Of a DNA stretch of 20,914 nt, positions 2,926 through 20,817 are shown piece by piece; within the stretch, counting starts at the first letter, position 1, and each line of letters opens with the position of its first letter. This DNA comes from Macrostomum lignano (lineage: Eukaryota), in NCBI GenBank assembly GCA_002269645.1, contig NIVC01002880.1, positions 1 to 20,914 of the forward strand, read 5' to 3'. The position numbers and the translations under genes were made by a program. Under the pieces are notes generated by a model, which worked only from the letters and a program-made list of their open reading frames with translations, did no database searches and had not been told where the DNA came from.

Positions 2926-3834
2926 AGGCCTCCTAGCCATATGGGCAGTCAGTAGGTAGGCTAAAAATTTTGAAAGTAGGCAAATAATTTATTTAACACA
3001 GTAAACTAGAAGATTGCCAGCCTAAGCAGTAATGTAAATTTATTATTGTATTTATAACTTTCGTTAATAACTTATTTTTAATGACAATGTAACTTATTTT
3101 TATTTTTAAAACATCTTGTATCTAATTAAAAATCATTATCATATCATTTTTCCCAAAAAAAGTTTGCATTTTGCATTGATTATCTATTTATATCTTGATT
3201 TATGCCTTGATAAATTTATAGCCATATGTCTAGGCCTAATAATAGGCCCATCCTAATGTTCACTATGAATGTACATTAGGATGCATGACTACTATAGGCC
3301 TAGTCTTTATATCATGCCTATGTAGGAAAAAATCTTTTTGATGACAGTATCCATTCCTAAAGGTATTTTGCTAAAAAAATTGACAATTTAAGCTAATACA
3401 ACCAACAACTTCATAATCAAAACTCATAGTCTTATAGGAATGATGGATAAAAGCTAATTTTCTTTATAAAGTTAAATGTTTCAATACAAAAATTGATTTA
3501 TAGGCTACTTTTATATTGTTAATTAGTAAGAGTGCTATAGGCCAGACTTAAAGATATAGTAAGCTAGCTCTAGCCTATAGGCTGGAGTTTGCCAACCTCT
3601 GATTGACAATAGGCCCTAAAAGCTGATTTTAAAAGTTTGTTTTATTATCTGAATATCATACTCCAAGCATAGTTGCTATAGTATTAGATTAAATGATTTT
3701 TGTCTATTTTTGTTTTAAATATATAATAAAATAAAATTGTCTAATAAGTAAAGTTAATCAAAATAATCACCTTTGGTGCTGATAACTTCAAATGGCATTT
3801 ATCAGCACTTTATCAGTTATCAGCACCTGCTCCA

Positions 3835-4668
3835 GATAGCAGGATTATACAAACTAATGTTGCTGAGTATAAAAACTCCTATACAGACAGCAGGATTATA
3901 CAAACTAATGCTGCTGAGTATAAAAACTCCTATACAGACAGCAGGATTATACAAACTAATGCCGCTGAGTATAAAAACTCCTATACAGACAGCAGGATTA
4001 TACAAACTAATGCTGCTGAGTATAAAAACTCCTATACAGACAGCAGGATTATACAAACTAATGCTGCTGAGTATAAAAACTCCTATACAGACAGCAGGAT
4101 TATACAAACTAATGCTGCTGAGTATAAAAACTCCTATACAGACAGCAGGATTATACAAACTAATGCTGCTGAGTATAAAAACTCCTATATAGACAGCAGG
4201 ATTATACAAACTAATGCTGCTGAGTATAAAAACTCCTGTACAGACAGCAGGATTATACAAACTAATGTTGCTGAGTATTAAAACTCCTGTACATATAGCA
4301 GGATTATACAAACTAATGTTGCTGAGTATAAAAACTCCTGTACAGACAGCAGGATTATACAAACTAATGTTGCTGAGTATAAAAACTCCTGTACAGACAG
4401 CAGGATTATACAAACTAATGTTGCTGAGTATAAAAACTCCTGTACATATAGCAGGATTATACAAACTAATGTTGCTGAGTATAAAAACTCCTGTACAGAC
4501 AGCAGGATTATACAAACTAATGTTGCTGAGTATTAAAACTCCTGTACAGACAGCAGGATTATACAAACTAATGTTGCTGAGTATAAAAACTCCTGTACAG
4601 ACAGCAGGATTATGCAAACTAATGTTGCTGAGTATAAAAACTCCTGTACAGACAGCAGGATTATGCAA
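3835..4668. repeat. 51-bp tandem minisatellite, about 16 full copies plus a partial
   Basis: Unit CAGCAGGATTATACAAACTAATG(C/T)TGCTGAGTATAAAAACTCCT(A/G)TACAGA; AGGATTA recurs every 51 nt from 3841 to 4657. Confidence 0.97.
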
Positions 4669-4913
4669 AATATATTTCTGAAATGTAAAGCAGCTTTCTA
4701 TTAAAAAAACTCGACCTTGTATTGATCAGAACGAACTTGAGTGTGTGGGTTTGGGCTGCTGCAGTGAGCTACTGAGCTCCAGCAGGAAGGCATTGCTCTC
4801 TTATCTCAAGTGTGGAGGTCATAGGGCAGATTGTGCCAGTAGTAGGGCGAATTATGATACTGCCGCACTAGCACTGGCGAGATAGGCGGCAATGCAAATG
4901 TACAGGGAAAAAT

Positions 4914-5225
4914 ACACTGCGGAGATATGAGCCCTATCTCTGTGCATTGGGGACGGCTAAGCACTGCAGAGATATGAGCTCTATCTCTGTGCATTGGGGA
5001 CGGCTAAGCACTGCAGAGATATGAGCTCTATCTCTGTGCATTGGGGACGGCTAAGCACTGCAGAGATATGAGCTCTATCTCTGTGCATTGGGGACGGCTA
5101 AGCACTGCAGAGATATGAGCTCTATCTCTGTGCATTGGGGACGGCTAAGCACTGCAGAGATATGAGCTCTATCTCTGTGCATTGGGGACGGCTAAGCACT
5201 GCAGAGATATGAGCTCTATCTCTGC
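4914..5225. repeat. 47-bp tandem repeat with internal palindrome (7 hairpin copies)
   Basis: GAGATATGAG starts at 4922, 4969, 5016, 5063, 5110, 5157 and 5204; units contain AGAGATA-TGAGCTC-TATCTCT (the first copy is a variant). Confidence 0.95.
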
Positions 5226-5456
5226 TTAACACAGGAGTGATAGGAGAAGAGGCGGCCTATTTCTTTACACTGGAGATGGTTAACACTGCAGAGATAGGAG
5301 GAGAGGCGGCCTATCTCTTTGCATTGGGGTGGTTAACACTGCAGAGATAGGAGGAGAGGCGGCCTATCTCTTTGCATTGGGGTGGTTAACACTGCAGAGA
5401 TAGGAGGAGAGGCGGCCTATCTCTTTGCATTGGGGGTGGTTAACACTGCAGAGATA
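5226..5456. repeat. 53/54-bp tandem repeat related to the 47-bp unit (3 full copies plus degenerate and partial copies)
   Basis: TAACACTGCA starts at 5281, 5334, 5387 and 5441; each full unit contains AGAGATAGG-aggagaggcgg-CCTATCTCT. Confidence 0.92.
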
Positions 5457-5496
5457 AGATGTTAATCTATGTAATTGGAAATAATGTTTGCGAAAG

Positions 5497-5590
5497 AGCC
5501 AATCACAGAGCCCGGAGTGGGATGGGTGGTTTGGGGTGGTTCGGTCGAGGGTATATAAGCCCCGAAATTGACAAGAAAGAATTCTCAATT
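5497..5590 (+). promoter_or_regulatory. Putative Pol II promoter of the PC4-like gene (CCAAT box, TATA box, Inr-like)
   Basis: AGCCAATCAC near 5498, GTATATAAG at 5551-5559 and TCAATTT about 30 nt downstream of the TATA box; ATG at 5664. Confidence 0.6.
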
Positions 5591-5663
5591 TTTCAAATCC
5601 AAAATTTCATCCGAAATTTTCCTCAGCTTTTAACTTTTGTGAGTTTTCAATTGCGAAAGGAAA

Positions 5664-6439
5664 ATGGACATCTGTGAAGGCTATAAGGCACAAGTCCAGG
5701 AGTTTGAAGGACAAAAATTTATCGCTATTCGCAATTTTACCGACACGGCAGCACGGCAAGTCTGAAGCCAGGCGTCCCAGGATTCAACCTGAATGTTCAC
5801 CAATGGAAGAAATTGAAGGAGGTGAAACGCTCACTTGTGATTTCTGCACGCAACAACGAGCCCAAGGTCGTGAAACTCGGCTTCGATAAGTTTGTGGAAG
5901 TCAAAGGCGGCATCATTTGGCTCAAACGGCTGCCGGAAGATTGCTGCGAGGAGTTTTTGAGACGAAACGCCGTACCACTGACTCCGCCGCTGTGGCAGAA
6001 GCTCTGGAAAATCGCCTCCTGGATCGACGGTCAGCTGGTGGCTCCCTTGAGGAACACAATGCAGTACGAGCTGGAGTCTGATGAGGAAGAGGAGGAAGAG
6101 GACAAGAAGCTCAAGTTGGAGGCTGACCAGGACACGAAGCCCATAATGGAGACTGATGAGGGCGGAGATCATGCTGATGACGAGGACGTTAGCTCGCCCA
6201 CAAGGCCGCGCATTGTGACTGAGCCAATCACATCCACACCGATACCTTCGGTTGATTCTGATGCTGGACTGCTTCCGCAGCGGGACACCAACCTTGAGGA
6301 AGATCCGGTGTGGTATCAGTTCAGGGCGCATGCAGCGGCTTCGACGGTGAGCAGCAGCAGCAGGAAGCGAAAGCTGCCATTTCAACTTCGTCGGCAGGAC
6401 GCGATGAGGCTGCAGCCCAATGTTCGCTTTGATAACTGA
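5664..6439 (+). CDS. Tandem PC4-like (ssDNA-binding/coactivator fold) protein with acidic and basic low-complexity tail; one -1 frameshift at T4 5735-5738
   Basis: Adding one T joins ATG 5664 to the long ORF: MDICEGYKAQVQEFEGQKFIAIRNFYRHGSTASLKPGVPGFNLNVHQWKKLKE..., matching PC4 ([20 protein letters not shown]...KPGRKGISLNPEQWSQLKE). A second diverged copy follows: KLGFDKFVEVKGGIIWLKR...RNAVPLTPPLWQKLWKIASWIDGQL. Repaired length is 258 aa. Confidence 0.75.
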
Positions 6440-6645
6440 ACAGCTAGAATGCTTTGAATGCATTGGACTAACTAAATTACTTTTAGCTTGCACATGATTA
6501 TCCAGCCTGACGGCACTATGCTGTTTTTTATCTCTGCTATTTCTGAAATGCTGGTGTGCGAGTGTTTTAGTGTTCGTTTTTATGGATTGTTTGCTTTCGG
6601 AAAATACACCGACTGTTACGATGTTAGAGGTTTCAATCTGACAGT

Positions 6646-6651
6646 AATAAA
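6646..6651 (+). terminator. Putative polyadenylation signal of the PC4-like gene
   Basis: AATAAA about 200 nt downstream of the stop at 6439, in AT-rich intergenic DNA. Confidence 0.4.
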
Positions 6652-6688
6652 TTAATTTGCCACTCGTTTCTCTATCATTTAATTGGAA

Positions 6689-6695
6689 TATAAAT
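6689..6695 (+). promoter_or_regulatory. Putative TATA box upstream of the integrase/structural cassette
   Basis: TATAAAT 65 nt upstream of the integrase ATG (6760); the AT-rich context makes a chance match possible. Confidence 0.35.
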
Positions 6696-6759
6696 TTCTA
6701 CTTAAGAAAAAATACTGTACAGCTAGAGCAGGTGGATAGGCACGTATCTTGATAAACCC

Positions 6760-7830
6760 ATGATGGAGAAAATTTATTTGAAACCTGAGCAACCGGCTAG
6801 TTTTTCTTGTGCCTCAAAGTTGCTGCATGAAGTGAGGCAAAGAGGTGATCGAATATCTGCAAAGAGCATTGAGCAGTGGCTCAGCGAGCAGCCAGTGCAC
6901 ACTCTGCACAAGCCAGCTAGGAGGCGATATCCAAGGGCCCCAATCATAGTGCGCGCAATCGATGATCAGTGGGAACTTGACTTAGTGGAAATGATTCCAT
7001 TCGCAAAGCATAATAAAGGCTACAAATATATTCTCACATGCATTGACGTGCTCTCAAAATGTGCTTGGGCCAAGGCACTGAAAAATAAATCTGCTGCAGA
7101 AGTGAAGTCAGCATTCGAGAGCATACTGAGAAGTTCAAAGCGCCAGCCACGCACAGTTCGCACAGATCAGGGGAAGGAATTTATCAACTCCACTTTCCGT
7201 CAATACTGCATTGACAGAGGGATTCTGGCTTTCCCAACTAACAGCGAGCAGAAGGCAGCTGTCATTGAGCGATGGAATCGAACTCTGAAAAGTAGAATGT
7301 GGCGCTACTTCACCTACAAGAGCACACTGCACTGGCTTGATGTGCTGCCTAAGCTGGTAAAATCCTACAACAATACCTACCACAGAAGCATCAAAATGGC
7401 ACCCACTAGTGTCTGCAAAGAGAATGAATCTGAAGTGTGGATGAACCTGTACGATGGAAAAGCAGTCGAGACTCTAGAAAAATTAAAGAAGCCTAAGTTC
7501 GCTGAAAACCAGTCAGTGAGAATTTCCAATGCTCCACGGATATTCAAAAAGGGATACAAAGCGAGCTGGAGTGAGGAAGTGTACACCGTGGTGAGCAGAG
7601 CCCCAAAACATTATCCCTACATGTACAAGATTAAAGACATGCGGGGGCAAGAGATTCGAGGACTCTTCCATGAGCACGAGCTGCAGGCTGTCCCGGACTC
7701 ACAGCGGCTGTATGTGATTGAGAAGATCCTGAAAACGGAGAAGCGGAAGGGAAAAATTCGCTATCTGGTGAAATGGGCGGGCTACGACTCGACTGGCTGG
7801 GTGGATGAAAAAGACTTAAGAAAGGTTTAG
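6760..7830 (+). CDS. Polinton retroviral-like (rve, DDE) integrase with C-terminal chromodomain
   Basis: Catalytic motifs WELDLVEM / VRTDQGKEF / AAVIERWNRTLK; YNNTYHRSIKMAP; C-terminal YVIEKILKTEKRKGKIRYLVKWAGYDSTGWVDEKDL chromodomain. Uninterrupted 356 aa. Confidence 0.96.
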   Translation: MMEKIYLKPEQPASFSCASKLLHEVRQRGDRISAKSIEQWLSEQPVHTLHKPARRRYPRAPIIVRAIDDQWELDLVEMIPFAKHNKGYKYILTCIDVLSKCAWAKALKNKSAAEVKSAFESILRSSKRQPRTVRTDQGKEFINSTFRQYCIDRGILAFPTNSEQKAAVIERWNRTLKSRMWRYFTYKSTLHWLDVLPKLVKSYNNTYHRSIKMAPTSVCKENESEVWMNLYDGKAVETLEKLKKPKFAENQSVRISNAPRIFKKGYKASWSEEVYTVVSRAPKHYPYMYKIKDMRGQEIRGLFHEHELQAVPDSQRLYVIEKILKTEKRKGKIRYLVKWAGYDSTGWVDEKDLRKV

Positions 7831-7858
7831 CTTTGGCACAGCCCTCATCATGTAGTTT

Positions 7859-8677
7859 ATGATTATAATGCGAACTATTTTGATTAACAGTGAGCATGCT
7901 GAAGGTACTCCTAGTGACTTTAATTTTTACCTGCCTTCACCTATTTACTTGGATCGAAATGTGGACTATGAGGCAGGTCTGGCTGAAATCCATCTGCCTG
8001 CTGCATGGTTCAATGTTGACGAGCCTTACTGCTTCACTGTCTCAGATGGAAGAGAGCATGAGGCCCTGGTTCTTCAACCCGGACGCTTTGCTAGAGTGGA
8101 GGAGCTGGTGGAGCGCCTGAATGAGCTGCTGGCCAACTCTGATTCGCTGTTCTTTGATGCAATGAGTGACAGGGAGTCTGAGATGGAGGCTGATGAGTCC
8201 GGCCTGATGGGGCGTAGTGGCAACAGGGAATTTGGTATGAAGTTCGAAATCCGCAACTCACGAACTGTGGTGCACAACAACACTGCGAGAGCAGAGCTGT
8301 TTCTTCCATCTAGTAAAATTCTGCATTGGCTGGGATTTGGAAACCAGGCTGTGAAAATCCAGCCAGGGAGCCGCGTATCCGAGCATTGCATTGGCTGCCC
8401 GCGCACCAGCTTAATCAATGTGCACTGCAGTATCGTTGAGTCAACTAATTGCAACTGGAGCTCCTTGTTGAGAACAGTTGGAATGAAAGCTGGCATTGAA
8501 TGGGGCAACTATCAAACAAAAATATTTAAGAAAACAATATTCTTCCCGATTCAACGAATCAGTCTTCTTCACAGCATTCGAGTTCAGCTGCGGGACATCT
8601 ATGGTTGCCCACTGATTGCACAGACTCACAGCCCTGTTCTGCTTACAGTTCAAATTCAGGAGAAACGCATTCAATGA
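7859..8677 (+). CDS. Minor capsid protein (penton, single jelly roll)
   Basis: N-terminus INSEHAEGTPSDFNFYLPSPIYLDRNVDYEAGLAEIHLP and C-terminus INVHCSIVE...FFPIQRISLLHSIRVQLRDIYG fit Polinton penton patterns; position between integrase and MCP. Confidence 0.82.
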   Translation: MIIMRTILINSEHAEGTPSDFNFYLPSPIYLDRNVDYEAGLAEIHLPAAWFNVDEPYCFTVSDGREHEALVLQPGRFARVEELVERLNELLANSDSLFFDAMSDRESEMEADESGLMGRSGNREFGMKFEIRNSRTVVHNNTARAELFLPSSKILHWLGFGNQAVKIQPGSRVSEHCIGCPRTSLINVHCSIVESTNCNWSSLLRTVGMKAGIEWGNYQTKIFKKTIFFPIQRISLLHSIRVQLRDIYGCPLIAQTHSPVLLTVQIQEKRIQ

Positions 8678-9051
8678 ACTACCAGCAGCTAATCCAGCAA
8701 TATTCGGGGGTGAGGACAGGACACGAAAAGCCTGCACTCTATGGCTGTGGGAGCTTCCCAGGGATCATGACATACCAGCCTCCGCCAGCGGCTATATCAT
8801 CATCATCAGCCTCGACGCTTAGCAACGTCAGGCGCAAAAGAAATACTGAAGCAAGTCCGAAACGATTGAAGAAAAAGAAGGGCACCCGAAAGGCAACTGG
8901 TGGAAATCGCAGTAAGAGGTCGAGCAAGGCTAGTGGGAAAAAGCTTAAGAATAGGAAGACGAAAGCAAAGAAGAATAGAGCAGGCGGAGGAAAGCGAAAG
9001 CAAAAAGTCAGCAAGAAAACTGTGAAACGCGTGCTCGACTCTCTGTCATAG
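8674..9051 (+). CDS. Lys/Arg-rich basic protein, putative genome-condensing core protein
   Basis: ATG overlaps the penton stop (ATGA, 8674-8677). 125 aa with a YGCG motif and a strongly basic C-terminal half (RRKRNTEASPKRLKKKKGTRK...); position directly before the MCP. Confidence 0.65.
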   Translation: MNYQQLIQQYSGVRTGHEKPALYGCGSFPGIMTYQPPPAAISSSSASTLSNVRRKRNTEASPKRLKKKKGTRKATGGNRSKRSSKASGKKLKNRKTKAKKNRAGGGKRKQKVSKKTVKRVLDSLS

Positions 9052-9053
9052 AC

Positions 9054-10336
9054 ATGGCTTACGGATTCAATCCCAGACTTGATTTATTTAAGACGCCCGT
9101 TCTACAAACCTGCATTGAAAAAGCTACTTATGTTGATATTCACCCAGTTAATTCCATTGTTGCAAACTCTCCCATTGAATTTGACTGCCACCAATCTGCC
9201 GATGAATATACAGATCTGCTTAATTCTTTTCTTTATATTCGCTGCCGCCTTGTGAGACTGGATGGGGGTTTGCTGAGGGAGGATGTTCGAGATGGAGATG
9301 GCATCATCACCGAGCGCAGAGACAGTGACGTGCACCCAGAAAATTTTGTTCTGTCTACAGCCTTCTCAGATGTAATTGTGAGCATTAACCAGCGAGTGGT
9401 GTCTGGTGGAGACCAGCTCTATCCCTACCATGCGTACTTCAAAGCACTAATGAGCTCATCCGATGCCCAGCAACTAAAACTTTACCCTGCTGGCTTCCTG
9501 GAGCCGAACTCGGCAGCTGAAGAGCACACGGAGAGCCACAGGGAATCCCAATGGATGGAGTATGCGGGGCCGCTCTTCAGCGATGTTTTCCAGTGCCCAG
9601 TGTTTCTGCTAAGCAATCTGCACCTGCACATCAAACTGGTCCCCAGCGATGGGGCCTTTGCCATCAGAACCCCGAATGCAAACAACGCGGCATACCGAAT
9701 GGAAATCTCTCACAGCATTCTGCATCTTCGCCGAGTCAAAGTGATGCCCCACATCAGCCTGGCCCATGAGCAGGGGCTGACAAACCAAAATGCACTGTAT
9801 CCCATCGAGCGAACTGAAATGCAGAACTTCATCCTACCCCAGGGTATTCAGTCAAAAAACATTGAAGGATTCACTCATGGAAAATTGCCGAAGTTCATCA
9901 TGCTGGCCTTCGTGAGCCACCGAGCATTCAACGGTCATCATCACGCGAGCCCGTTACAGTTCCAGAGCTTCAACCTTAGCCGATTGGCTCTAAAGAAAGG
10001 TGGGGAAACCGTGTGCCACGGCGCCTTCACACCTGAAAACAATTCCTTCGTAAGAGAATACTTGCACTACCTGAAAAGCTGTCAATCTGCAAGCCACACA
10101 AACTCGGTCCGTGGATCCCCTACCAGCTCTTCTCCAACAACACCACGGTGTTTGCATTCGATCTCACACCCGAGGGAGCGGCTCTGTGGTACGGACAGAA
10201 GGAGGGCAACCTGCGGCTGGAGATTCGCTTCCAACAGGCTCTGAATGAAGCGGTGTCCCTGATTGCTATGTGCCTGTATGACTCGCTGATTGAGGTCACC
10301 AAGCACCGAGAGCTTTTGCTGGACTATTCCTCTTAA
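9054..10336 (+). CDS. Major capsid protein (double jelly roll, hexon-like); one -1 frameshift at about 10074-10112
   Basis: N-terminal RLDLFKTPVLQTCIE...IHPVNSI...PIEF, internal HPENFVLSTAFSDVIVSIN, LPKFIMLAFVSHRAFNG and LQFQSFNL. The C-terminal FAFDLTP...GNLRLEIRF...YDSLIEVTKHRELLLDY lies in the -1 frame (10148-10336). Repaired length is 427 aa. Confidence 0.93.
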
Positions 10337-10341
10337 TTGAC

Positions 10342-10854
10342 ATGGATGCAATTCAACTACTTAATCTCGCCAGAAAATTTTTGCCTTACCAAAAATTTCT
10401 CATAGTTACTTTACATTTGCGCTATAAAAATTCTCTGCCCTTGAATGTAAAAAGAAAATTTAGATCATCAATTTCCTTTGAAAACAAGTTTGTTTTTGTC
10501 CTACTTCAGCACAATGGCTCATTTGGTCACTGGGTGGTGTGCTATGTTGGGCAAGGAAATCGCATTGAGTTGTTCAACTCCCTCGGCTGGGAACCTGAAA
10601 TTTTATCTTTGGTTTATAATTTGTTTCGAGAGATTAAAACAACTGGCTTTTGGCTCCGAAGCAATATAAACAGAGTTCAATGTGCTAACTCTAATAAATG
10701 CGGAATGTTTTGCATCTATTTTGCTTATCAAAAGTTTCTGTTCAATCGGTCATTTGAGGGGATTTTGAAGCATTTGCATGCTAATGAGAAAAATCATTTG
10801 AATGATAGAATCTTACAGAGGTTTGAAGCCAACTTAAGAAAAAGATGTCCGTGA
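10342..10854 (+). CDS. Adenain-like (Ulp1/C5 clan) maturation cysteine protease
   Basis: GHWV (His), IELFNSLG (acidic position is Asn), NRVQ (oxyanion Gln) and KCGMFCIYF (Cys); 170 aa. Confidence 0.9.
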   Translation: MDAIQLLNLARKFLPYQKFLIVTLHLRYKNSLPLNVKRKFRSSISFENKFVFVLLQHNGSFGHWVVCYVGQGNRIELFNSLGWEPEILSLVYNLFREIKTTGFWLRSNINRVQCANSNKCGMFCIYFAYQKFLFNRSFEGILKHLHANEKNHLNDRILQRFEANLRKRCP

Positions 10855-11524
10855 TTTCTAATATTTATGCATTAAACATGGGAGAAAAGCAAGTTTGCTA
10901 CGATATCCGCCTCAGGCAGGGAAGCTGCATGATTGTCTGCGGGCCCACCAATGCAGGAAAAACAACCTTTGTCGAACACCTGATCCAGTACAGAGACGTC
11001 ATGTTTGATGTGAAGCCTGGCAGAGTTCTGTGGTACTATGGGATCTCACAGGCAGGCCATGCAGAACTGAACAGCCTAGGTGTGCAGCTGCGCCAGGGAT
11101 TTCCCACCAACATCGAGGCAGCACTTAGGCCCAATGACCTGGTTGTTTTCGATGACTTAATAGAGGAAACTTCAAACTCTGCTTCAATGCGAAATTTTTT
11201 CACAGGAATCGCACATCACTTGCCGTGCTTTTTGGTGATGCTGACTCAGAATATATTTTTCAAGGGAAAAGAGTCGCGAACAATGAGCTTGAATGTAATG
11301 TACTTAGCTATCTTGAAAAACCCCGAGACCAGCTGCAGATTGCAGCACTGGGCAGGCAGTGCTTTACAGAGAAGCCCGGCTTTCTGCTGTCAGTGTTCAA
11401 GCACGTGACCGCGCAGGGCAGGGGAGCCTACCTGTTCCTAGACTTTCACCCATCAACTCCCGATGAGCTGCGAGTGCGGGCCAGAATTCTGCCCAACCAG
11501 CGACCCCATCTTGTATTTGCTTAA
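10845..11524 (+). CDS. A32/FtsK-HerA-like genome packaging ATPase; one -1 frameshift at C4 11321-11324
   Basis: Walker A GPTNAGKT, Walker B LVVFDD and HHLPCFLVMLTQN. Adding one C restores ILKNPRDQLQIAALGRQCF...GAYLFLDFHPSTPDELRVR. Repaired length is 226 aa. Confidence 0.93.
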
Positions 11525-11565
11525 GAAAGTGAAGCTTGTTTTTATCAGCTATTGTTTTCATCGCA

Positions 11566-11904
11566 ATGGAAGTGCTTGATTCATATGCAAGTCTTTTTGC
11601 GGTTCTTGCGTCACCTAAATATACCGTGCGCTTCAAGCGGCTGTTGATAAAAAATTGTCCAAAAGAAGTGCGTTATTTTCTTGTCGAGGCCTGCCATAAT
11701 CTCTTACAAAACAATCTATCGTTTTCGCTCGATGAAAAAGCTGTTCTTGCAAAGTCAAAAGAGATAATTCGAAAAATTACTCACAAAAGAAGAAAGACAG
11801 ACTTGTTGAAGGCTGGCTTCATCAAAATACTCCCGATTCTGCTTAAGCTGGTAAAGAAGAAGAAGCAAAATGAACAAATTTTCAGAAATGGTTCTGATTC
11901 CTAA
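11566..11904 (+). CDS. Conserved Polinton/adintovirus small basic protein (resembles the 'cupiennin-like' ORF; putative membrane-active virion protein)
   Basis: Pattern RLLIKNC..EVRYFLVEACHNLLQNNL.....EK..L.K.K..IRKI...RRK..LLKAGFIKILPILL; position after the ATPase; first ATG at 11566. Confidence 0.6.
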   Translation: MEVLDSYASLFAVLASPKYTVRFKRLLIKNCPKEVRYFLVEACHNLLQNNLSFSLDEKAVLAKSKEIIRKITHKRRKTDLLKAGFIKILPILLKLVKKKKQNEQIFRNGSDS

Positions 11905-12490
11905 AGCAGAGTATGAGATGTTGATGCAGAATTTGAAGCCAAATGAGACTACCACTGAAGCTGACTTGAAGCAGGCTCAGAAGAAATGCGATGACATCTT
12001 GTATGCCGAGGATTGTCCAGAAGATGTGAAAACCGCCATGTACCAAAGTGCAATGCAAAGTTTGCTGGCCAAGCGCAAGCACGCTGGAAAAGAAGGAGCA
12101 CGCAATACTGAAGCCAAGTTGATGAAAACAGAGACACCCCAGATAAGCACCTGGGAAGAGAAGATCAGCAAGTCGGTGCCACAGAAATTCAAAACCAGGG
12201 CTCGCAGTCTGTGGACGATCCTGTCCACCAATCCAGAGCTGATTCGAGTTTGTGAAAACGGGGAGGTGGAAATCGCAGGCACGTCAATCCCTTCCTCAAA
12301 CATACTGGACTTGATTCAGCACACAGTGAGGGATTCGCCATGTGAGCGTGAACCAGTTGGGTGGAACGAGTTCATCGATTTTCTGCAGCAGAAAAAGCTT
12401 AATGTTCCGCTTTCCGCTGTTGGTAAATCAGTTAAGAAGAAAATGGCAACCAGCAGAGGGGTGAACTGGAGAAAGAACAGGAGAGTCTAG
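11870..12490 (+). CDS. Conserved Polinton/adintovirus protein (resembles the 'GasderminX' ORF), function unknown; start may be ATG 11888
   Basis: MVLIP start, DILYAEDCPEDVKTAMYQ, SVPQKFKTRARSL, GEVEIAGTSIPSSNILDLI and PVGWNEF..FL....NVP match the recalled family pattern; syntenic after the cupiennin-like ORF. Confidence 0.6.
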   Translation: MNKFSEMVLIPKAEYEMLMQNLKPNETTTEADLKQAQKKCDDILYAEDCPEDVKTAMYQSAMQSLLAKRKHAGKEGARNTEAKLMKTETPQISTWEEKISKSVPQKFKTRARSLWTILSTNPELIRVCENGEVEIAGTSIPSSNILDLIQHTVRDSPCEREPVGWNEFIDFLQQKKLNVPLSAVGKSVKKKMATSRGVNWRKNRRV

Positions 12491-12540
12491 TCAAGGGGTA
12501 CGGGAGCAACACAGCCTGGCTGAAATTGCCTGCCAGAAAA

Positions 12541-12549
12541 GTATATAAG
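12541..12549 (+). promoter_or_regulatory. Putative TATA box of the nuclease-like/TBP-like unit
   Basis: GTATATAAG, identical to 5551-5559, about 40 nt upstream of ATG 12591 in the intergenic gap. Confidence 0.55.
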
Positions 12550-12590
12550 AAGGTGGACTGACTCCGAAATTTTCGAAGGAAAGCTGCATC

Positions 12591-13442
12591 ATGAACTACA
12601 TTGACTTCCAAGGATTCCCGTGCAACAGCACAAGCAAAAAATTTGTTGTGAAGGAGTTGGCAGTTGTTCAAATCAGAGCGGGGAGCTACCACATTGCTCA
12701 CCATGTGTACGCACCTCCGTATCCATGGGAGAGAGTCTCACCTGACATGCGAGTTTACTACAGACAGCTATCTAAGAGTCTGCACCAGTTTAAGTGGAAT
12801 GATGGAACCCGTCCGTACATGGAACTGGCGGAAGACATTCTGAGCATTGCCAGTGGTCCGATCTGGTCAAATGGGGAAAGGAAGTCGATTTTTCTGACTG
12901 AGCTGCTTGGAAGACAGGTTTATAACCTAGAAGATTTGGGAGCACCCTCGACTGAAGATTCAGATACTGGCTGTGCAGTGAGAAATTCGTTGCTGCACTA
13001 CAGTTGGCTTAAGCCAAAGTTCTGCATCAACTTAAGAAGCGAGCAGTGTCCGTGGCACACGAGCAGTAAAGTTGGCAGAAGCAGATTTGGTGAAGAAGTT
13101 GACGATCGAAATGAGCCCACCAGCTACAGCCCTAAGAGTGACCAATCTGGTTGGCGGAGTAGATCTGAGACTGGATGGTGGCAGGGGCGCTCAGCTGCCT
13201 CTACGGGAACTGGCTCTCAGCATGGCTCATGTGATCTACCGGCCCGTCTGGCCCCGGGTGCTCATCAAGCGGATGCGGATTCCCAGAGTGACTCTCCTAC
13301 TCTACCCTACTGGGCAACTGAGCATCTGCGGTGCCAAGACCCACGCAGACGCCAAAAGGGCTGCCCGTCGCTTCGTGGCTATGCTGCATCGGAGAGTGCC
13401 GGCTCAACTGCTGCCTCATCAAACAATTTGTGTTCGAATTAA
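12591..13442 (+). CDS. DEDD-fold / Maelstrom-like nuclease-related Polinton protein; recognisable part is about aa 1-160, and the tail overlaps the TBP-like gene out of frame
   Basis: IDFQGF...FVVKELAV...YAPPYPW...LHQFKWNDG..PY...SNGERKSIFL..LLG..VYNLEDLGAP...CAVRN pattern seen in Polinton accessory genes. Confidence 0.6.
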   Translation: MNYIDFQGFPCNSTSKKFVVKELAVVQIRAGSYHIAHHVYAPPYPWERVSPDMRVYYRQLSKSLHQFKWNDGTRPYMELAEDILSIASGPIWSNGERKSIFLTELLGRQVYNLEDLGAPSTEDSDTGCAVRNSLLHYSWLKPKFCINLRSEQCPWHTSSKVGRSRFGEEVDDRNEPTSYSPKSDQSGWRSRSETGWWQGRSAASTGTGSQHGSCDLPARLAPGAHQADADSQSDSPTLPYWATEHLRCQDPRRRQKGCPSLRGYAASESAGSTAASSNNLCSN

Positions 13443-13683
13443 AACTATTACTGCTCATGGACAGCTCCCAGTTCATTCCGCACTTTCCTTATTAATGTTA
13501 AAATCAATTATCCCAAACGCCGAATATGAACCAGAATCCTTTTCTGCTTTAATTTTCAATTTAAACTTTTGTAAATGTCTGCTTTTTCACAGCGGCTCTT
13601 TTGTTCTCAGTGGAGCTCGGTCCTTGAATCAGTTGCATACCGATAGCATGCGTCTACTCAATGTAGTTCTTTCCATTGAATAA
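13111..13683 (+). CDS. TATA-binding protein (TBP) core-domain homolog, 190 aa from ATG 13111 (frame is open from 13036)
   Basis: Both TBP repeats align by eye: LRVTNLVGGVDL...LPLRELAL...IYRPVWPRVLIKRMRIPRVTLLLYPTGQLSICGAKTHADAKRAARRF and VRIKTITAHGQL...AEYEPESFSALIFNL...KCLLFHSGSFVLSGARS. TBP comparison: LQNIVSTVNL...LDLKTIAL...[47 protein letters not shown] / IQNMVGSCDV...SYEPELFPGLIYRM...LLIFVSGKVVLTGAK. Confidence 0.9.
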   Translation: MSPPATALRVTNLVGGVDLRLDGGRGAQLPLRELALSMAHVIYRPVWPRVLIKRMRIPRVTLLLYPTGQLSICGAKTHADAKRAARRFVAMLHRRVPAQLLPHQTICVRIKTITAHGQLPVHSALSLLMLKSIIPNAEYEPESFSALIFNLNFCKCLLFHSGSFVLSGARSLNQLHTDSMRLLNVVLSIE

Positions 13684-13684
13684 A

Positions 13685-13745
13685 AATAAAGTCAAGTCAA
13701 GCAATTTGCCGCAAATATTTCAATGATTAGTGAAAAGTGAATAAA
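13685..13745 (+). terminator. Putative polyadenylation signals ending the plus-strand cassette
   Basis: AATAAA at 13685-13690, immediately after the TBP-like stop, and again at 13740-13745. Confidence 0.55.
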
Positions 13746-14265
13746 AGGATAAACTTGGTATTCTTTACATTCATTTTCCCAGGCAGACAGCTATGGAACA
13801 CTTCAAAAACGTATTTAGCCCATCACCAAAAGTATCGCAAAACGCATATCAAATCCGAAAGTAAACAATACTACCATCGTTATAACAAACGATGTGCACC
13901 GAGAGAAGAGAAATAGAAAAGTGATAGAGAAAATATGATTAAAACGCTGATTGAATTTACAGGAACAATTTGTGTCAGATAAAAACCAAAAACACATTTT
14001 AAACAAGTAGTACACAAAGCAAACAAAAATGAATTAATATTGTATGAGCGCACTTGCCACACAGCTTTATAAAAAGTAAAACTTAAATTGATATCAATAT
14101 TTCACGCCGCAAAAACAAATTGACAGCTAAATCTAGCGCAATTAGCCAAGCATACAAATTTGTAAAAGTTACTACATGCAAGTCACTACATTTAAAACAG
14201 AATTTGGCAATTTAAACAACTCTAAAAGCAAGAAAAAGTACTAAACAGTCTGTTAAACACCCGCA

Positions 14266-17200
14266 CTAGACCAGTCGGATGCGCTTCAGCTGATCGTGGG
14301 ATGCGGGCGTCAGCGCATAGTGTCCGTAGGGCAGGCTTCGATTACTGCTAAGCCACACTCGCTTATCCTCCCACACCGATAGGCTTCTTTTCTCCATGAC
14401 CGACGTGAAGATTTCGTGTTTCTTGGAAACAATCGCTGTCATGGCAACCATCTGCTCTTGCTTGGACTCGAACGCGTCGACATAGTTCGCATGCGAAATT
14501 TGCTGTCTTACTACTGACTGCTTCACGCCTTTGGCAGTTTTCTTGATCTTTGCACTCGAATTCTCGGCAGGGAGAAACGAATAAAGTTTTGGACGCAAAA
14601 GAATCCACTCCTGGTAAATTCCACCAGCAGATTCATCTTTAACGCAGCCCAGCTTTCCTTTTAACTCTTCAGAGAAATGCGGATGGTCTCGAGAATAGTT
14701 GGATGTGTCAAGTATTTTTTCCTCTCTAAGCTTCGGGATTACCTCCGATGTTAAATCATGATTCTTGAAAGCTAGAAAAAATGAGTCAGTATCACCTCCG
14801 CAAAGCATCATGTCTCTGGAACCGTCTGAATGACAGAACAGCGGTCGGAGCCTGTCATATAGTAGGCTGTACATGGCCATCTTAGAGAGATCGAGAACTG
14901 CCTGGCCAACGAAAATGGCCTTGTCAAGCGTGACTTTATCTTTTTTGAGCTGAAAAATGCTCAACGACTCATTGATAATCGAGAATGCGGCACAGTTTGG
15001 TCGAGAGGCGCAAGTTTCTGCTTGAGTCTGGTTAGTGCAAATTCGAACATCGCATCTTTTTCGAACGTTCTCCATAGTTTTTCCAAAGAGAGAATTGTTT
15101 TTCAATTTGTAAAAATCCTTAGCAAACTCGGAAGTTGCCAAAGCTCTTTTTTCATTGTTGCTGGCAATGTACGGCGCGAAAATATTTTCCTGCTTGAACG
15201 AAATCATTTTTTTGACGCACTTGATCCGCATTCCGTGTTGCAGGTAAAATCTTAAAACGGTGCTGTGAACTACGTAAGAATCCTTGTCGGTACAGGTGAG
15301 TAGAAGCTTCTCCGTTGCTTGAAACTTAGCTTCAGCATTGCCAGTTCGCTGTTCAGCAATCTCTTTCCATAGTTCGGCCATGTACGGCGAGAATTGATCT
15401 GGCTGTGGTTTTGATTTTTCAGGTGCAAACGGTAACTCCTGAGTCGAATCGTGAATCTCAGCTGGGTATTCTAGATCGAGTTGAACAAGGTAGGCGATCT
15501 CGGCTTCTGGATTGAGTGACAGAAACCGATTGGAGTCCCAGAACTGGATTTCCTGTTCCGGTACCCACCTGAATTCCCTGCATGGAAGCGGAAGCGACAG
15601 GGCAAAGCCATACAAGTTGTTCATATCGATCGGCATGAGGCTTACACTCTCTTGCTGATCATCATAACCTGGCAAGCTAGGATTATTACCTTTGACGCAA
15701 TGCACATTAATGAAGGACATGCCTCCTCGTATTCCCTTCTCAAACAGATGATACATGTCAGCATCAGTCAGCTGCTCTAGAACCACTCCAGTCGACTTTA
15801 GAGCTGAGTCGTAAGACAAACCAGGAGTAGTAAAGTAGTGTACCGGATCCAATCCGTCCTCTTTCAGACTGGCCTGTCGGAATGTCTCGAAAATGTCAGC
15901 CAGCTGCCTTACATCCATTTCAAGATAGGCGAGCATATAATCCTTCAAACTTTTGCATTGAAATGCCGCCCATGCCGCTCTTGCTCTATTGTAGTCGTCG
16001 TCGGAAATTCCCCTATCGGAAAGTCGATTAAAAAAAGCATCTTTAGGCGGCAAAACCGACTGCTCGAGAATCTCAAATCCTGTGAGGTAATCATATGGGA
16101 AAATCCCTTTTTTTCGAAGTAGCTCTCTTGAAAGATGTGGTCTTGACTCAAGCATTTGCATTGTCAGCTTGCATTCAGCTTCGGGAAGATTAGCAAACAA
16201 ATTGGACAAACTTCCCTTCAAAAAGCAGAGCGAGTCGATGAACTGAATTGTAAACATGATTGGCACAACTTTTCCGTTCTTTACGTAACTTGCAACAGGG
16301 AATTCCGCCCTTAGTGACAAGTATCGCTCGGATGATTGCGGAACAACACTAAGTTTCCAATTTTTCATGCTCCCAAGCGCAGTGGAAAGTAGAAGATGAA
16401 GGTCGTAGCCGCCTAAGTTGTGAAAAACCAGGGGCAGAAACCGGCGTCGGAGCTGTGCTCGCAGGTTGCATTCTTGACATGCTGCACCTTTGTACTGTCC
16501 ATTTAAATGATCGTGGTCAAAATGTTTATCTGTAGAACTTTTAAAGTTCTTCTTGCAGTAGTGACATACCTCAGCAGAATTGAAATCATCCATGACGGTC
16601 GCGGATGATCGGTCAGCCGGCTGGTGGCTATGCTTCTGGTTCCAGTGAAATATATCCTGAGCCAGGCTTTCAAGAGATTTGAGAAAACCAAGGATACACT
16701 CATCAGGGTCCGCATTGCAAAAGACCTTGTACATGTCTCCTTCTGGCCTAAGCGGAGGTCCTGTCATGCCTTCACGAGGCACTGCAAGAAAAGCTGCTGC
16801 ACATGGTTCATGCTTTGAGATCAGGTTAGCAGGGTCTGTGTTCGCTCGCAAAATGGCTTCCAGGTCGGCATAGGCAACGAATGGTGGACTGACAGTGTTT
16901 TGACAGTTTCGGAACTTTATTTCATTCTGTCCTGGAACTGGAAGCGTTTCTTTGACAGGATTTTCTGCAGTAATGCTGCATTCGTTCCTGTGCTCTTGAA
17001 GCCTCTCGTTGCTATAAAATGATGTTAAACATTTCGTGCACCACTTCCTCATGGCGGGACCATTACGACTGTTCATTAACCTGTCAAAATTAGTAATTGC
17101 ACACCAGTGCTCCGATCCGTAGCTGTCTTTAACTAGCAAAAGCATGAGGTGTCTTCGGTCATCTGACTCATGCTTGCGGCGACGGAGAAGAGTCACACTG

Positions 17201-17915
17201 CCCTGCTGCCAAGAGAACGCAGAAATGCAAATTCCTGGATTGTTAGACTCGACGCGATCGATATCAGCGACACTCACTGGCATGGAGATTTCTGCAAAGT
17301 CCAGCTCACGCAACCATTCATCGTAAGAGGATATTCTGTTGGGCGATTTCTGAACTTTCGGATCGGCGCTGTGCAGTGCAGCGAGACAGGCGTACAGGAA
17401 ACAGTCTTTGCCTGTGCTCGGTGGATTGATAACAGCCTTTTTGTTCTTCAAACTGGCAGGAAGATTGAATCTAACGGCTCTGCCCTGGCGAAATCGAATT
17501 GGATTGTACCTGGCAAGGTTGATGTCTAGAAAATTAATTTGTTTAATTGTCCAGCCACTGCCGTTCGTATTAATCATACTACAGATCCTCTCCAACTCCT
17601 GCTCCTGCTCAATCAACCAGTTGTTTAAACGGCCTGCTTCACCACCTAGGTCTAGGGCCTGCATTTTACAGCTTATCCATCTGTCCTCTTCGGCAAGCAT
17701 CTCCCCATCTCTTATTCGGACCATTCGAATATTCGCCTTTAGCTGAACTTTGTAATGATGTCTTGAAATTCTTTGCTGAACTGCCTCAATAATTTTGTCT
17801 CCAGCTTGGACAAAAAATTCTGACGGAAGCGTGTCTGGGTGACTCGATCTGAGCCTCAGTATTTCCAGTGATTGATCATAGGCTTGGGCAACTCTGCTGA
17901 AGCTGACTGTTGAAC
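14266..17915 (-). CDS. polB: Protein-primed family B DNA polymerase (pPolB), main exon; ORF track calls 14266-17724 but the frame is open to 17928
   Basis: ExoI YADLE, zinc-finger/endonuclease VII-like CHYC...HFDHDHLNGQYKGAACQECNL, ExoII FHNLGGYDLH, KGIFPYDY, motif A IDMNNLYGFAL, motif B KLKNNSLFGK, motif C GDTDS, LRPKLYS and KTAKGV. No internal stops over more than 1150 aa. Confidence 0.97.
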
Positions 17916-17956
17916 CTGGTTTGTGGTTTTAGGATAATATTTTTGTTTTTTGCTGC

Positions 17957-18147
17957 CTATAGTTTCAAATATCAAAGATACTAAACTAAACGTCTGTACC
18001 CAAGCATACATGTACAACCCTACCGGTATAAAGTCTTTTATCTCCCCTTCTCCCATTCTTTGGACTAAAATTTTAGACTGCATAATATACATCGCATTGA
18101 TAAGAAAATTTTTAAGTAAGTTGAAAAGGATAAATAAAGGCACTTAC
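17957..18147 (-). other. Predicted spliceosomal intron in polB (alternative acceptor would give 17916-18147)
   Basis: Donor AAG|GTAAGTG at 18148/18147; AT-rich body; acceptor TTTGATATTTGAAACTATAG|G at 17957/17956 or AACCAG|GT at 17916/17915; both are phase-1 compatible. Confidence 0.65.
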
Positions 18148-18544
18148 CTTGGTGTGCATCAGTCACCGACTCGCTGTTGGCTGCTGACTCGCTGCTGGCT
18201 GCTGACTCGCTGCTGGCTGCTGACTCGCTGCTGGCTGCTGACTCGCTGCTGGCTGCTGACTCGCTGCTGGCTGCTGACTCGCTGCTGGCTGCCGACTCGC
18301 TGCTGGCTGCCGACTCGCTGCTGGCTGCCGACTCGCTGCTGGCTGCTGACTCGCTGCTGACGTCATGGTCCACCCAAGGGTGGTCATACTCGATCCACGA
18401 GTGGTCATCCTCCATCCACGAGTGGCCATTCTCCATCCATGAGTGGTCATTCTCCATCCATGAGTGGTCATTCTCCATCCATGAGTGGTCATTCTCCATC
18501 CATGAGTGGTCATTCTCCTGCTCCATCCAGGAGTGCTCAACCAT
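18148..18544 (-). CDS. Predicted first exon of polB, encoding (DHSWMEN)n and (SSESAA)n repeats
   Basis: ATG at 18544; the ORF runs into a consensus splice donor in the phase needed to join the polB frame. Confidence 0.55.
18170..18361. repeat. 18-bp tandem repeat, about 10 copies
   Basis: Unit CTCGCTGCTGGCTGC(T/C)GA. Confidence 0.95.
18362..18540. repeat. 21-bp tandem repeat, about 8 copies
   Basis: Unit CATGAGTGGTCATTCTCCATC with degenerate edge copies. Confidence 0.93.
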
Positions 18545-19507
18545 AGAAAAGGCAAGCAGTTAAAAGCTGACAGTGTTTACTGGCTGCAACTGAGTGTCAT
18601 AAGCAACTGGGAGTGAATATTTGAAATCTTTTTTCGTAAGTCTTTATTGCTGCAATACTGGTACAATATCCACACTTACAAGCTAGTAGATGCTGGTTAT
18701 ATTTTTTTGGTTCTCCCTTAAGCTAGCTCTCTGCATGCATATTCTATTGATCCCTATTCGTAAAAGTTCGTTTCTATTTGCCTCCTACGCAGACTCAATC
18801 GGTAAAAAATGCAAAATGAAGCCAATAGTTAATTAACAAACCAATCACCGAGTGGAAAAATGCTGACATTATATATATATTTTTTAAAAAAATATCGAAT
18901 TCACATGGTGCAATCATAGTCAATAAACAATGCATGGAACAATGAATTACAAATACAGACGAGAGTTTAGAAGCAGAAATATAGCTGAAAAGTTCAATAA
19001 TTAAAGAATGAGGAAACACCGCATCAAAGCAGTAGAAAGAAAATTATACCTAATCAATCGCACCAAGCATACGAAACCATCACCAATTTATTGAAAGTAT
19101 GTTATGTTGATTTTAATTTGTTAAATTCAACTGTATAATGTTTCACCTACTTTTCAAATAATTTTTTTTTACCTCGGATACCAAAAAAATATTGGTTGCC
19201 ACTACGAGCTACGAGCTTTTTTTAAAACTAATTTGGAAATGAAAACTGAAAACTTATAAGCAAGATTCCTAGAAGCGAATACAGAGTTATGAGATGATCA
19301 AATCATTAATTAATGTACCTACTTTCAACTTTAAAAAGCTAGTTGAAATAAAGTTTTAGCAATAACTAGCAATCTTCGCCCCCGATGGGGACATCTAGAT
19401 AGAATCTCTGTTCTCTACAAGTATCAATAAGATGGCCAAACAAAGCCTTCACATAGTCAATAGAAAAACTGCTCAGATGAAGTGCAATGCAAAAAGAAAA
19501 CATCCTA

Positions 19508-19740
19508 AGACAGCAAGCATCCCCCTAGATAGCAAGCACCTCCAGATAGCAAGCACCACCAGATAGCAAGCACCTCCAGATAGCAAGCACCACCAGATAG
19601 CAAGCACCCCCAGATAGCAAGCACCCCCAGATAGCAAGCACCCCCAGATAGCAAGCACCCCCAGATAGCAAGCACCCCAGATAGCAAGCAACCAATTGAT
19701 AGCAAGTATTGATCCTATACTAAATAGCAAGCATCCACCG
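19508..19740. repeat. 17-bp tandem repeat, about 11-12 copies
   Basis: Unit AGATAGCAAGCACC(C/T/A)CC; starts at 19527, 19544, 19561 and onward. Confidence 0.93.
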
Positions 19741-19842
19741 GACAATAAGTAGCAAGTGCAACAATTTCCTTAGCTTTATAATGGCTCCTTTGTGATTGGC
19801 ATGACGCTTCTTTTTACGTTTGAAATTGTGTCTCCTATGTTT

Positions 19843-20817
19843 GACTTGGTGGCTCTTTAATGTTCGACATGCTGGCTCTTTAATGTTCAATATGGTGGCT
19901 CTTTAATGTACGACATGGTGGCTCTTTACTGTTAGACATGGTGGCTCTTTAATGTTTTACATGGTGGCTCTTTAATGTTTGACATGGTGGCTCTTTAATG
20001 TTCGACATGGTGGCTCTTTAATGTTTGAAATGGTGGCTCTTTAATGTTTGACATAAAGTCACATATATGTTTGACATGGTGGCTCTTTAATGTTCGACAT
20101 GGTGGCTCTTTTATGTTCGACATGGTGGCTCTTTTTAATATCTGACATGGTGGCTCTTCTATGTTTGACATGGTGGCTTTTTAATGTTTAACATGGTGGC
20201 TCTTTTATGTTTGACATGGTGGCTCTTAAATGTTTGACATGGTGGCTCTTAAATCTTTGACATGGTGGCTTCTAAATGTTTGACATGGTGGCTCTTTAAT
20301 GTTCTTCATGGTGGCTCTTTAATATTCTACATAGTGGCTCTTTAATTTTCGACATGGTGGCTCTTTAATGTTCTACATGGTAACTCTTTTATGTTTGATA
20401 CAGTGGCTTTTTAATGTCTGACATGTTGTCTCTTTTATGTTTGACATGGTGGCTCTTTAGTGTTCAACAAAGTGGTTCTTTTATGTTTGACATGCTGGCT
20501 TTTAATTGTTTGACATGGTGGCTCTTTAATGTTCTACATGGTGGCCCTTTAATGTTCGACATGCTGGCTCTTTACTGTTAGACATGGTGGCTCTTTTAGG
20601 TTTGACATGGTGGCTCTTAAATGTTTGACATGGTGGCCTCTTTAATGTTTCACATGGTGGCTCTTTAATATTTGACATAAAGTCACATATATGTTTAACA
20701 TGGTGGCTCCTAAATGTTTGACATGGTGGCTCTTTATGTTTGACATGGTGGCTCTTTTATGTTTGGCATGGTGGCTCTTTAATGTTCGACATGGTGGCTC
20801 TTTAATGTTCGACATGG
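19843..20817. repeat. 23-bp tandem minisatellite, about 40 diverged copies
   Basis: Unit GACATGGTGGCTCTTTAATGTT(T/C); the variant block ACATAAAGTCACATATATGTT occurs twice (about 20051 and 20675). Confidence 0.96.

Follow-up and report, generated by a model that had tools for sequence, protein, structure and literature searches.

A Polinton in the genome of Macrostomum lignano encodes a homolog of the TATA-binding protein (TBP) that is real, element-encoded and under selection, and two other Polinton families in the same genome also carry a TBP-like gene. Most genes of the capsid module are preceded by a strand-specific box, which is reported here as new. From sequence comparisons we give a probability of roughly 0.6 to the reading that the Polinton-encoded TBP binds a box with a TAAG core and would recruit host TFIIB and Pol II to most genes of the capsid module. 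The window (the whole stretch of DNA analysed) comprises 20,914 nt of contig NIVC01002880.1; its element belongs to family A, and the two other families are termed B and C.

Three other copies diverge from the window copy at 19373; two of these were seen to continue for ~2.2 kb to a right inverted terminal repeat that is absent from the window copy, and one other copy (contig C530) has inverted terminal repeats with AGTAGT ends and a 6-bp target duplication. The hallmark Polinton set of protein-primed DNA polymerase B (pPolB), rve integrase, protease and packaging ATPase is present, the ATPase being recognized by weak P-loop matches only. The plus strand encodes PC4, the integrase, putative minor and major capsid proteins, the protease, the ATPase, three proteins of no known family and the TBP:

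4839..19373, no strand assigned, extent of the Polinton in the window (by comparison with other copies)
4839..5456, plus strand, left terminal repeat, beginning AGTAGTAG
5665..6439, plus strand, PC4 (p15 coactivator, ssDNA-binding), frameshifted here; PF02229 in two other copies
6760..7830, plus strand, rve integrase with chromodomain (Pfam)
7859..8677, plus strand, putative minor capsid protein, without Pfam match, assigned by position
9054..10244, plus strand, putative major capsid protein, without Pfam match, assigned by position and size; frameshifted near its end
10342..10854, plus strand, adenovirus-type cysteine protease (Pfam)
10878..11408, plus strand, P-loop packaging ATPase (weak Pfam P-loop matches), frameshifted near its end in the window copy
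12591..13442, plus strand, ORF12591, upstream gene of no known family whose tail overlaps TBP
13111..13683, plus strand, viral TBP, 190-aa intronless ORF with two lobes (Pfam, matches to solved TBPs, structure model)
13455..13470 (TBP codon about 117), no strand assigned, fixed mosaic junction (identity drop between subfamilies)
13679..13690, plus strand, two AATAAA signals, the first (13679-13684) overlapping the TBP stop, the second (13685-13690) after it
14266..17724, minus strand, pPolB with an endonuclease VII-like insert (Pfam), convergent with TBP

We take 7859..8677 to be the minor capsid gene partly on a presumed similarity, and 9054..10244 to be the major capsid gene partly on presumed motifs. 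The ATPase Met at 10878 is kept by other subfamilies. The TBP, integrase and pPolB frames are open in the window copy; frameshifts near 5760, 10110, 11320 and 12460 affect PC4, the major capsid gene, the ATPase and ORF11870, respectively, and some of these frameshifts, or the missing right end, may be assembly errors. PC4, a second transcription-related or ssDNA-binding factor of host type, is found in families A and B (in the latter at L036 6011-6448) at different positions in the element. Tandem arrays with units of 51 nt and 23 nt flank the element on the host side (3780-4690; 19700-20800), and 47-nt and 53-nt arrays lie inside the left terminal repeat. One contig of run X1, whose RNA type is a guess, skips 17913-18146 with CT..AC ends, i.e. 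a GT-AG intron on the minus strand, which would splice the pPolB frame to an upstream exon rich in repeats and is the sole hint of transcription. Assembled contigs from two runs of one study end in the gap between TBP and pPolB and those from three other runs span it; we did not count them as evidence.

The original prediction saw at 13111-13683 a complete two-repeat TBP core, intronless and with AATAAA at its stop, in an element without an RNA polymerase, and each of these points was borne out. PF00352 matched the ORF in two stretches (E 7.9e-25; 87 bits against a curated cut-off of 22.9), 35 solved TBP sequences were matched (best E 2.1e-18), and the structure model (pLDDT 96.1) has the saddle fold, with TM 0.79-0.84 to solved TBP structures. 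Viral TBP-fold proteins from BFVD match this model more weakly (best E 2e-11, 8-20% identity), the ESM Atlas matches are generic TBP clusters only, and a database protein 99% identical to the Polinton TBP carries the source label Macrostomum lignano, a laboratory flatworm. No RNA polymerase subunit was found among the 13 window ORFs scanned with Pfam. The protein consists of the 190-aa core, the N-terminal extension being absent, and shares about 27% identity with host TBP. An AATAAA near the TBP stop is also present in diverged subfamilies. The host TBP core is likewise intronless, with a single open frame of 219 aa; the core domains of host TBP and host TRF2 lie in one long open frame each, on three contigs each.

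In families A and B, ORF12591 invariably lies before TBP, and it overlaps the N-lobe by 110-130 codons. In the window the overlap covers the first 110 TBP codons in another frame, and this frame is open in 9/9 family A and 2/2 family B copies tested. We found no Pfam or PDB match for ORF12591 and its structure model has a pLDDT of 35; its start presumably resembles a DEDD/Maelstrom-like nuclease.

Residues of the DNA face and of the stirrup were mapped with the yeast contact list in Table 1 of PMC12529657 and an alignment with host TBP (A1). N69 (N12 in the Polinton TBP), V71, L114, F190 (F144), L205, F207 (F159) and V213 are kept. The second Asn, N159, is T112, so that the original prediction was right about both Asn positions, and it was right as well about a short insertion after strand 1, which has 6 residues and is specific to family A, family B being without it. 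It had also taken all four intercalating Phe positions (F99, F116, F190, F207) to be aromatic (W, Y, F, F), which had to be revised: F99 is replaced by P48 and F116 by Y65, leaving three of the four aromatic (Y65, F144, F159). W47 as the equivalent of F99 was rejected, since ungapped alignments to human TBP and to host TBP (A1) place W47 at R98 and P48 at F99. A further alignment (A4) shifted the host row by three columns near F99, and for this reason we rely for the register on the ungapped match and on a predicted strand at 50-55. Pro at the F99 position is common to families A, B and C, preceded at position 47 by W, H or R.

From the canonical polar set (N69/N159, T124/T215 and P191) only N12 is kept, next to T112, C73, S167 and S145; V122 is replaced by S71, V161 by T114 and V203 by K155, where the yeast numbers V203, E186 and E188 are those we take to apply. 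Judged by the changes V122 to S, V161 to T, V203 to K and P191 to S or N, the DNA face of the viral TBP appears more polar than that of the host protein. The TFIIB-contacting stirrup, predicted to be kept, is indeed retained as E140-P141-E142 and is invariant across all 19 rows of A1, a statement about sequence only. Ten positions of the DNA face and stirrup (N12, V14, P48, Y65, C73, T112, E140, E142, F144 and F159) are invariant between families A and B despite ~38% identity. Compared with host TBP, family A retains most of the basic helix-2 patch (K82, R86, R87, R94), most of which family B has lost. The changes F99 to P and N159 to T could weaken DNA binding; in KSHV ORF24 all four Phe are required, according to the accessible part of PMC12529657.

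The genome contains 152 matches to the Polinton TBP, a number that does not equal the copy number, since the host TBP gene itself lies on three contigs; among the 150 matches listed, at least 25 are identical and full-length. Full-length intact matches of family A are 74-100% identical, and those of family B about 38%. We sampled 20 TBP-centred 10-kb stretches across the identity range and found a Polinton core gene within 10 kb of TBP and the same upstream gene at 20/20 loci, with a capsid gene in view at 16/20. Family C was found with the family B capsid protein as query (about 35% identity); it had been chosen as a distant-capsid control lacking TBP and proved to carry TBP-like genes. At 5/7 of its loci a TBP-like frame lies upstream of pPolB (local profile E 4e-12 to 3e-6), the other two not covering the region; Pfam placed one of four such frames above the cut-off, gave weak matches for two and missed one. 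These frames lack an in-frame start and N69, and they may be spliced. The gene order of family C is different (L069, L072, L081, L086: TBP-like, pPolB, ATPase, minor capsid, integrase, capsid), and some members also have deoxynucleoside kinase and dUTPase genes.

Among 27 metagenomic contigs found by capsid protein, which are mostly short, there are two in which a TBP gene (Pfam E 8e-10 and 6e-7) adjoins genes for capsid and protease:

L088 1714-2181, no strand assigned, metagenomic TBP gene of only about 156 aa, adjoining capsid/protease genes
L098 559-1134, no strand assigned, metagenomic TBP gene, adjoining capsid/protease genes

The TBP of L088, family C and the database protein P0166 share an R-P-T-M-L motif. 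Neither viral contigs nor metagenomes yielded a relative in pattern scans with the TBP alignment, and capsid scans of viral contigs yielded none either. As family C and the metagenomic cases were found by profile only, searches used to annotate Polintons may routinely miss such TBP genes.

Selection on the TBP gene is purifying, which answers the question raised in the original prediction: among 10 family A variants the whole-gene dN/dS is 0.10-0.58 and below 1 in 45/45 pairs. Relative to the window copy it is 0.09-0.28 for codons 1-110 and 0.09-0.23 for the rest (7/9 pairs computable, 2 saturated), and the values per half among family A pairs are mostly 0.1-0.3, the second half being saturated in 10 pairs. 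In a tree of 41 rows, families A and B form one clade with database relatives (100/99), on a long branch far from host TBP and TRF2; host TRF2 groups with rotifer TRF2 (100/99), apart from the Polinton clade. A single clade of families A, B and C was not recovered in this tree, where family C joins a metagenomic row among the long branches. The distance in the tree between families A and B and the host proteins, together with dN/dS, points to one or more old viral lineages rather than a recent host retrocopy. The view of a captured, diverged TBP thus stands as far as divergence, residence in the element and purifying selection are concerned, and is not supported for capture from this host.

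These data bear on the reading that the gene is a neutral passenger, either a host retrocopy or a frame held open only by the overlapping gene. The first 110 codons do overlap another open frame and the gene is intronless, although the host TBP core is so too. The half of the gene outside the overlap nonetheless has a dN/dS of about 0.1-0.4 at saturating dS, the protein sits at about 27% identity to host TBP on a long separate branch, and TBP is found in three families with different gene order. Copy context, dN/dS and the tree largely refute this reading, which we regard as highly improbable.

Within the TBP gene of family A, identity between subfamilies falls from about 95% to 46-71% at 13455-13470, roughly 20 nt beyond the dual-coding overlap. 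On the left side of this junction the subfamilies form two groups, each with ~95% internal identity. On the right side synonymous sites are close to saturated, and each of the nine elements sampled has a pPolB gene of its own, with 50-78% pairwise identity in the C-terminal part. Each family A TBP is thus a shared N-lobe joined to one of many C-lobes. The dual-coding overlap may be the last long block of homology that allows crossovers.

Turning to the DNA, no 8-mer of the left arm is more over-represented than CTTAAGAA (6 observed against 0.15 expected). WTAAGAA has 9 occurrences on the coding strand of the family A element, each at most 160 nt from a start codon, and none on the opposite strand, whereas plain TAAG in the left arm of the window shows no strand bias (24 versus 28). 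The sites, together with a promoter of host type, are:

5498..5559, plus strand, host-type promoter, CCAAT box then TATATAAG, before the PC4 gene
6701..6708, plus strand, CTTAAGAA box, 59 nt before the integrase gene
7815..7822, plus strand, CTTAAGAA box, 44 nt before the putative minor capsid gene
8525..8532, plus strand, TTTAAGAA box, 149 nt before ORF8674 (140 nt in family B)
8944..8951, plus strand, CTTAAGAA box, 110 nt before the putative major capsid gene, inside a small basic ORF
10833..10840, plus strand, CTTAAGAA box, 45 nt before the ATPase Met at 10878
11520..11527, plus strand, CTTAAGAA box, 46 nt before ORF11566
12544..12551, plus strand, TATAAGAA box (the site given as GTATATAAG in the original prediction), 47 nt before ORF12591
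13031..13038, plus strand, CTTAAGAA box, 80 nt upstream of the TBP start codon, present in all sampled subfamilies of family A

Five family A sites lie 44-59 nt before the integrase, minor capsid, ATPase, ORF11566 and ORF12591 genes, and the other four 80-160 nt before TBP, the major capsid gene, ORF8674 and ORF12591; no box was found upstream of the protease gene (10342..10854). The zone of 40-62 nt before an ATG makes up 3% of positions and holds 5/9 family A sites (p 3e-6, the zone having been chosen post hoc). Boxes of families B and C are of the TATAAG type. In family B, four of the genes that have a box in family A are preceded by TATAAGAA or CATAAGAA; in three related elements of family C, TATAAG is found at 14 places on the coding strand and at none on the opposite strand, with 7/14 sites in the same zone (3/7, 3/4 and 1/3 per element; p 6e-4, 1e-4 and 0.07, the elements being related). 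The small basic ORF that precedes the major capsid gene contains a box in all three families (107 nt before the gene in B, 158-166 nt in C).

A subfamily with 74% identity retains the motif at 5/7 sites, against a mere 18% of 7-mers that show full conservation. At the capsid gene, two subfamilies have CCTAAGAA. Many box sites fall within coding sequence, and shuffling of synonymous codons revealed a modest excess of boxes in families A (6 versus 2.0, p 0.008) and B (3 versus 0.9, p 0.03), and none in family C (p 0.17 and 0.53). The PC4 gene stands in both A and B behind a CCAAT-like box and TATATAA, and the family B TBP gene has TATAAAAG 53 nt upstream; we infer that 5498..5559 is an early promoter. 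The original prediction had named GTATATAAG as the viral target, which we abandon: the copy at 12541 is not kept and reads TTTAAGAA in two distant subfamilies, that at 5551 sits after a CCAAT box as in an ordinary host promoter, and the recurrent box of the element is WTAAGAA.

We propose the following course of events. The early genes (PC4, and in family B also the TBP gene) would be transcribed by host TBP from ordinary CCAAT/TATA promoters. The viral TBP, with its polar DNA face and one intercalating Phe fewer, would then prefer C-T-T-A-A-G-A-A or T-A-T-A-A-G, and its retained E-P-E stirrup would bind host TFIIB; we assign the stirrup to the host factor because no viral TFIIB was found, PF00382 giving 15 low-copy matches in the genome and no multicopy family, although a very diverged TFIIB could escape such a search. 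Transcripts would start ~30 nt downstream of the box, giving leaders of 15-30 nt; by the general layout of Pol II promoters, an octamer at a fixed 45-60 nt before the ATG fits a -30 element with short leaders. The family A TBP gene has its own box, which could produce positive feedback and does not fit a simple early-to-late switch. Redirection of host Pol II and TFIIB, as originally predicted, remains the best reading on account of the kept stirrup and the lack of a multicopy TFIIB, with a different target from the one then named.

The invariance of the stirrup is also what one would expect of a decoy or repressor, i.e. a poor DNA binder that mainly sequesters or obstructs host factors (TFIIB, TFIIA, TAF1 or Mot1), or one that sits on the boxes and keeps integrated capsid genes silent, the boxes being read by host TBP. 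The loss of F99 in all three families, the change of N159 and the helix-2 patch of family A agree with this. TATAAG is moreover near canonical and wild-type TBP has been crystallised on a G(-26) variant (title of PDB entry 1qn5), so host TBP could read the boxes of families B and C. We nevertheless find such a role unlikely, as the DNA-face residues are as invariant as the stirrup and a pure protein decoy would not need them, family B has lost most of the patch, and the family A box departs from TATAAAAG at three positions.

Another machine might use the boxes instead, either host TBP/TRF2 alone or the polymerase of a helper virus, of the baculovirus/nudivirus type, which initiates at TAAG; in that case the viral TBP would be a non-specific supplement that boosts or protects transcription, or have a role linked to Pol III or replication. 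TAAG is the core of baculovirus late promoters and matches the box, and a TATA-type strand bias is also seen in metagenomic Polinton fragments with no TBP gene in view (these being fragments only). That it is WTAAGAA and not plain TAAG which is strand-biased tells against this, as do the spacing of 44-60 nt, which suits a -30 element better than a start inside the motif, and the fact that families A and B keep contact residues that are altered rather than host-like; we hold this possibility to be rather unlikely. The reading in which the viral TBP itself binds the boxes is favoured by their spacing, by a DNA face that is altered yet invariant, by the kept TFIIB-contacting acids and by the lack of a multicopy TFIIB.

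With cellular members of the TBP family (PF00352) the Polinton protein shares the two-lobed saddle, N69, F190, F207, an aromatic residue at F116 and the acidic TFIIB stirrup; it differs in residing on a mobile element and in F99 to P, N159 to T, P191 to S, V203 to K, V122 to S and T124 to C. Host TRF2 keeps only F207 of the four aromatics in register, and its changes are unlike those of the Polinton TBP. Among viruses, beta- and gammaherpesviruses have a TBP mimic that works with host Pol II (KSHV ORF24, EBV BcRF1, HCMV UL87), and ORF24, with polar changes at V122, T124 and V161, reads TATT with host Pol II (accessible part of PMC12529657). Common to both systems are a virus without polymerase, a TBP-like protein with a polar DNA face and an own TATA-like box, in herpesviruses before late genes and in the Polinton before genes that may be late ones. 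ORF24, as described in the same part of PMC12529657, is a multidomain protein of 752 aa that makes direct contact with Pol II and depends on five further viral factors; it lacks the TFIIB-contacting acidic residues and keeps the four Phe, whereas the Polinton TBP is a 190-aa core with the stirrup kept and F99 lost. No herpesvirus-type partners were found among the ORFs scanned with Pfam. By analogy, the Polinton TBP most plausibly works like a herpesvirus TBP mimic, yet stands outside that system.

TBPs of Nucleocytoviricota (mimi-, phycodna-, asfar-, irido- and poxviruses) and mirusviruses share the viral TBP fold. According to the accessible part of Ravarani 2020 (PMC7221094), nearly all such TBP-carrying viruses also encode TFIIB, and conservation of the stirrup acids is poor (~40%); in contrast, the Polinton has an integrating genome of ~17 kb and both stirrup acids, and the search described above found no virus-encoded TFIIB that would make a TBP-TFIIB pair. 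The premise of the original prediction that viral TBPs go with a viral RNA polymerase is not supported as it stands, since the herpesvirus mimic uses host Pol II (PMC12529657, in part) and most phycodnaviruses lack an RNA polymerase (PMC5294985, in part), some phycodnaviruses being among the TBP-fold matches in BFVD. With Polintons, Mavericks and adintoviruses (MELD viruses) the element shares pPolB, rve integrase, protease, ATPase, capsid-like genes, AGTAGT ends, terminal repeats and the 6-bp target duplication. A gene label "TBP" already stands in the legend of Fig. 5 of Starrett 2021 (PMC8502044) on MELD viruses, and in this respect full novelty is not supported. The accessible part of that paper and of its preprint names TBP only as a figure label, and that of the paper holds no analysis of a TBP family, selection or promoters, whereas in the present genome three families carry TBP as a fixed gene, together with a matching box.

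In the literature within our reach, from which most subscription papers fall out, we found no analysis of TBP in Polintons. A term search of the four supplementary files of Ravarani 2020 (PMC7221094) gave no Polinton, Maverick or adintovirus, and neither TBP nor TATA turned up in the searched text of Jeong 2023 (PMC10748475) or of two preprints from 2026 that deal with Polinton-like viruses; TBP is mentioned only in mirusvirus-like elements in the accessible part of PMC10675990.

A Polinton TBP with its own box likely steers host RNA polymerase to the genes of the element, as the arrangement of gene and sites suggests. We think it possible, though we incline slightly against it, that many animal Polintons possess a one-protein switch, composed of a bare TBP lineage with Pro for F99, a TAAG-core box and host TFIIB and Pol II, with no other viral factor. 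If true, this would be the smallest known orthogonal system of promoter recognition, and it would explain how capsid genes of a silent integrated Polinton are activated without a helper virus. The finding of family C and the metagenomic TBPs by profile only means that Polinton annotation may routinely overlook such genes. Natural TBP variants that lack a supposedly indispensable Phe and are still under selection bear on the ways in which the specificity of a TBP may be altered. One small protein and one matching 8-bp site would offer a direct and testable mechanism for the switching on of capsid genes in integrated Polintons, and bear on whether these elements need a helper virus.
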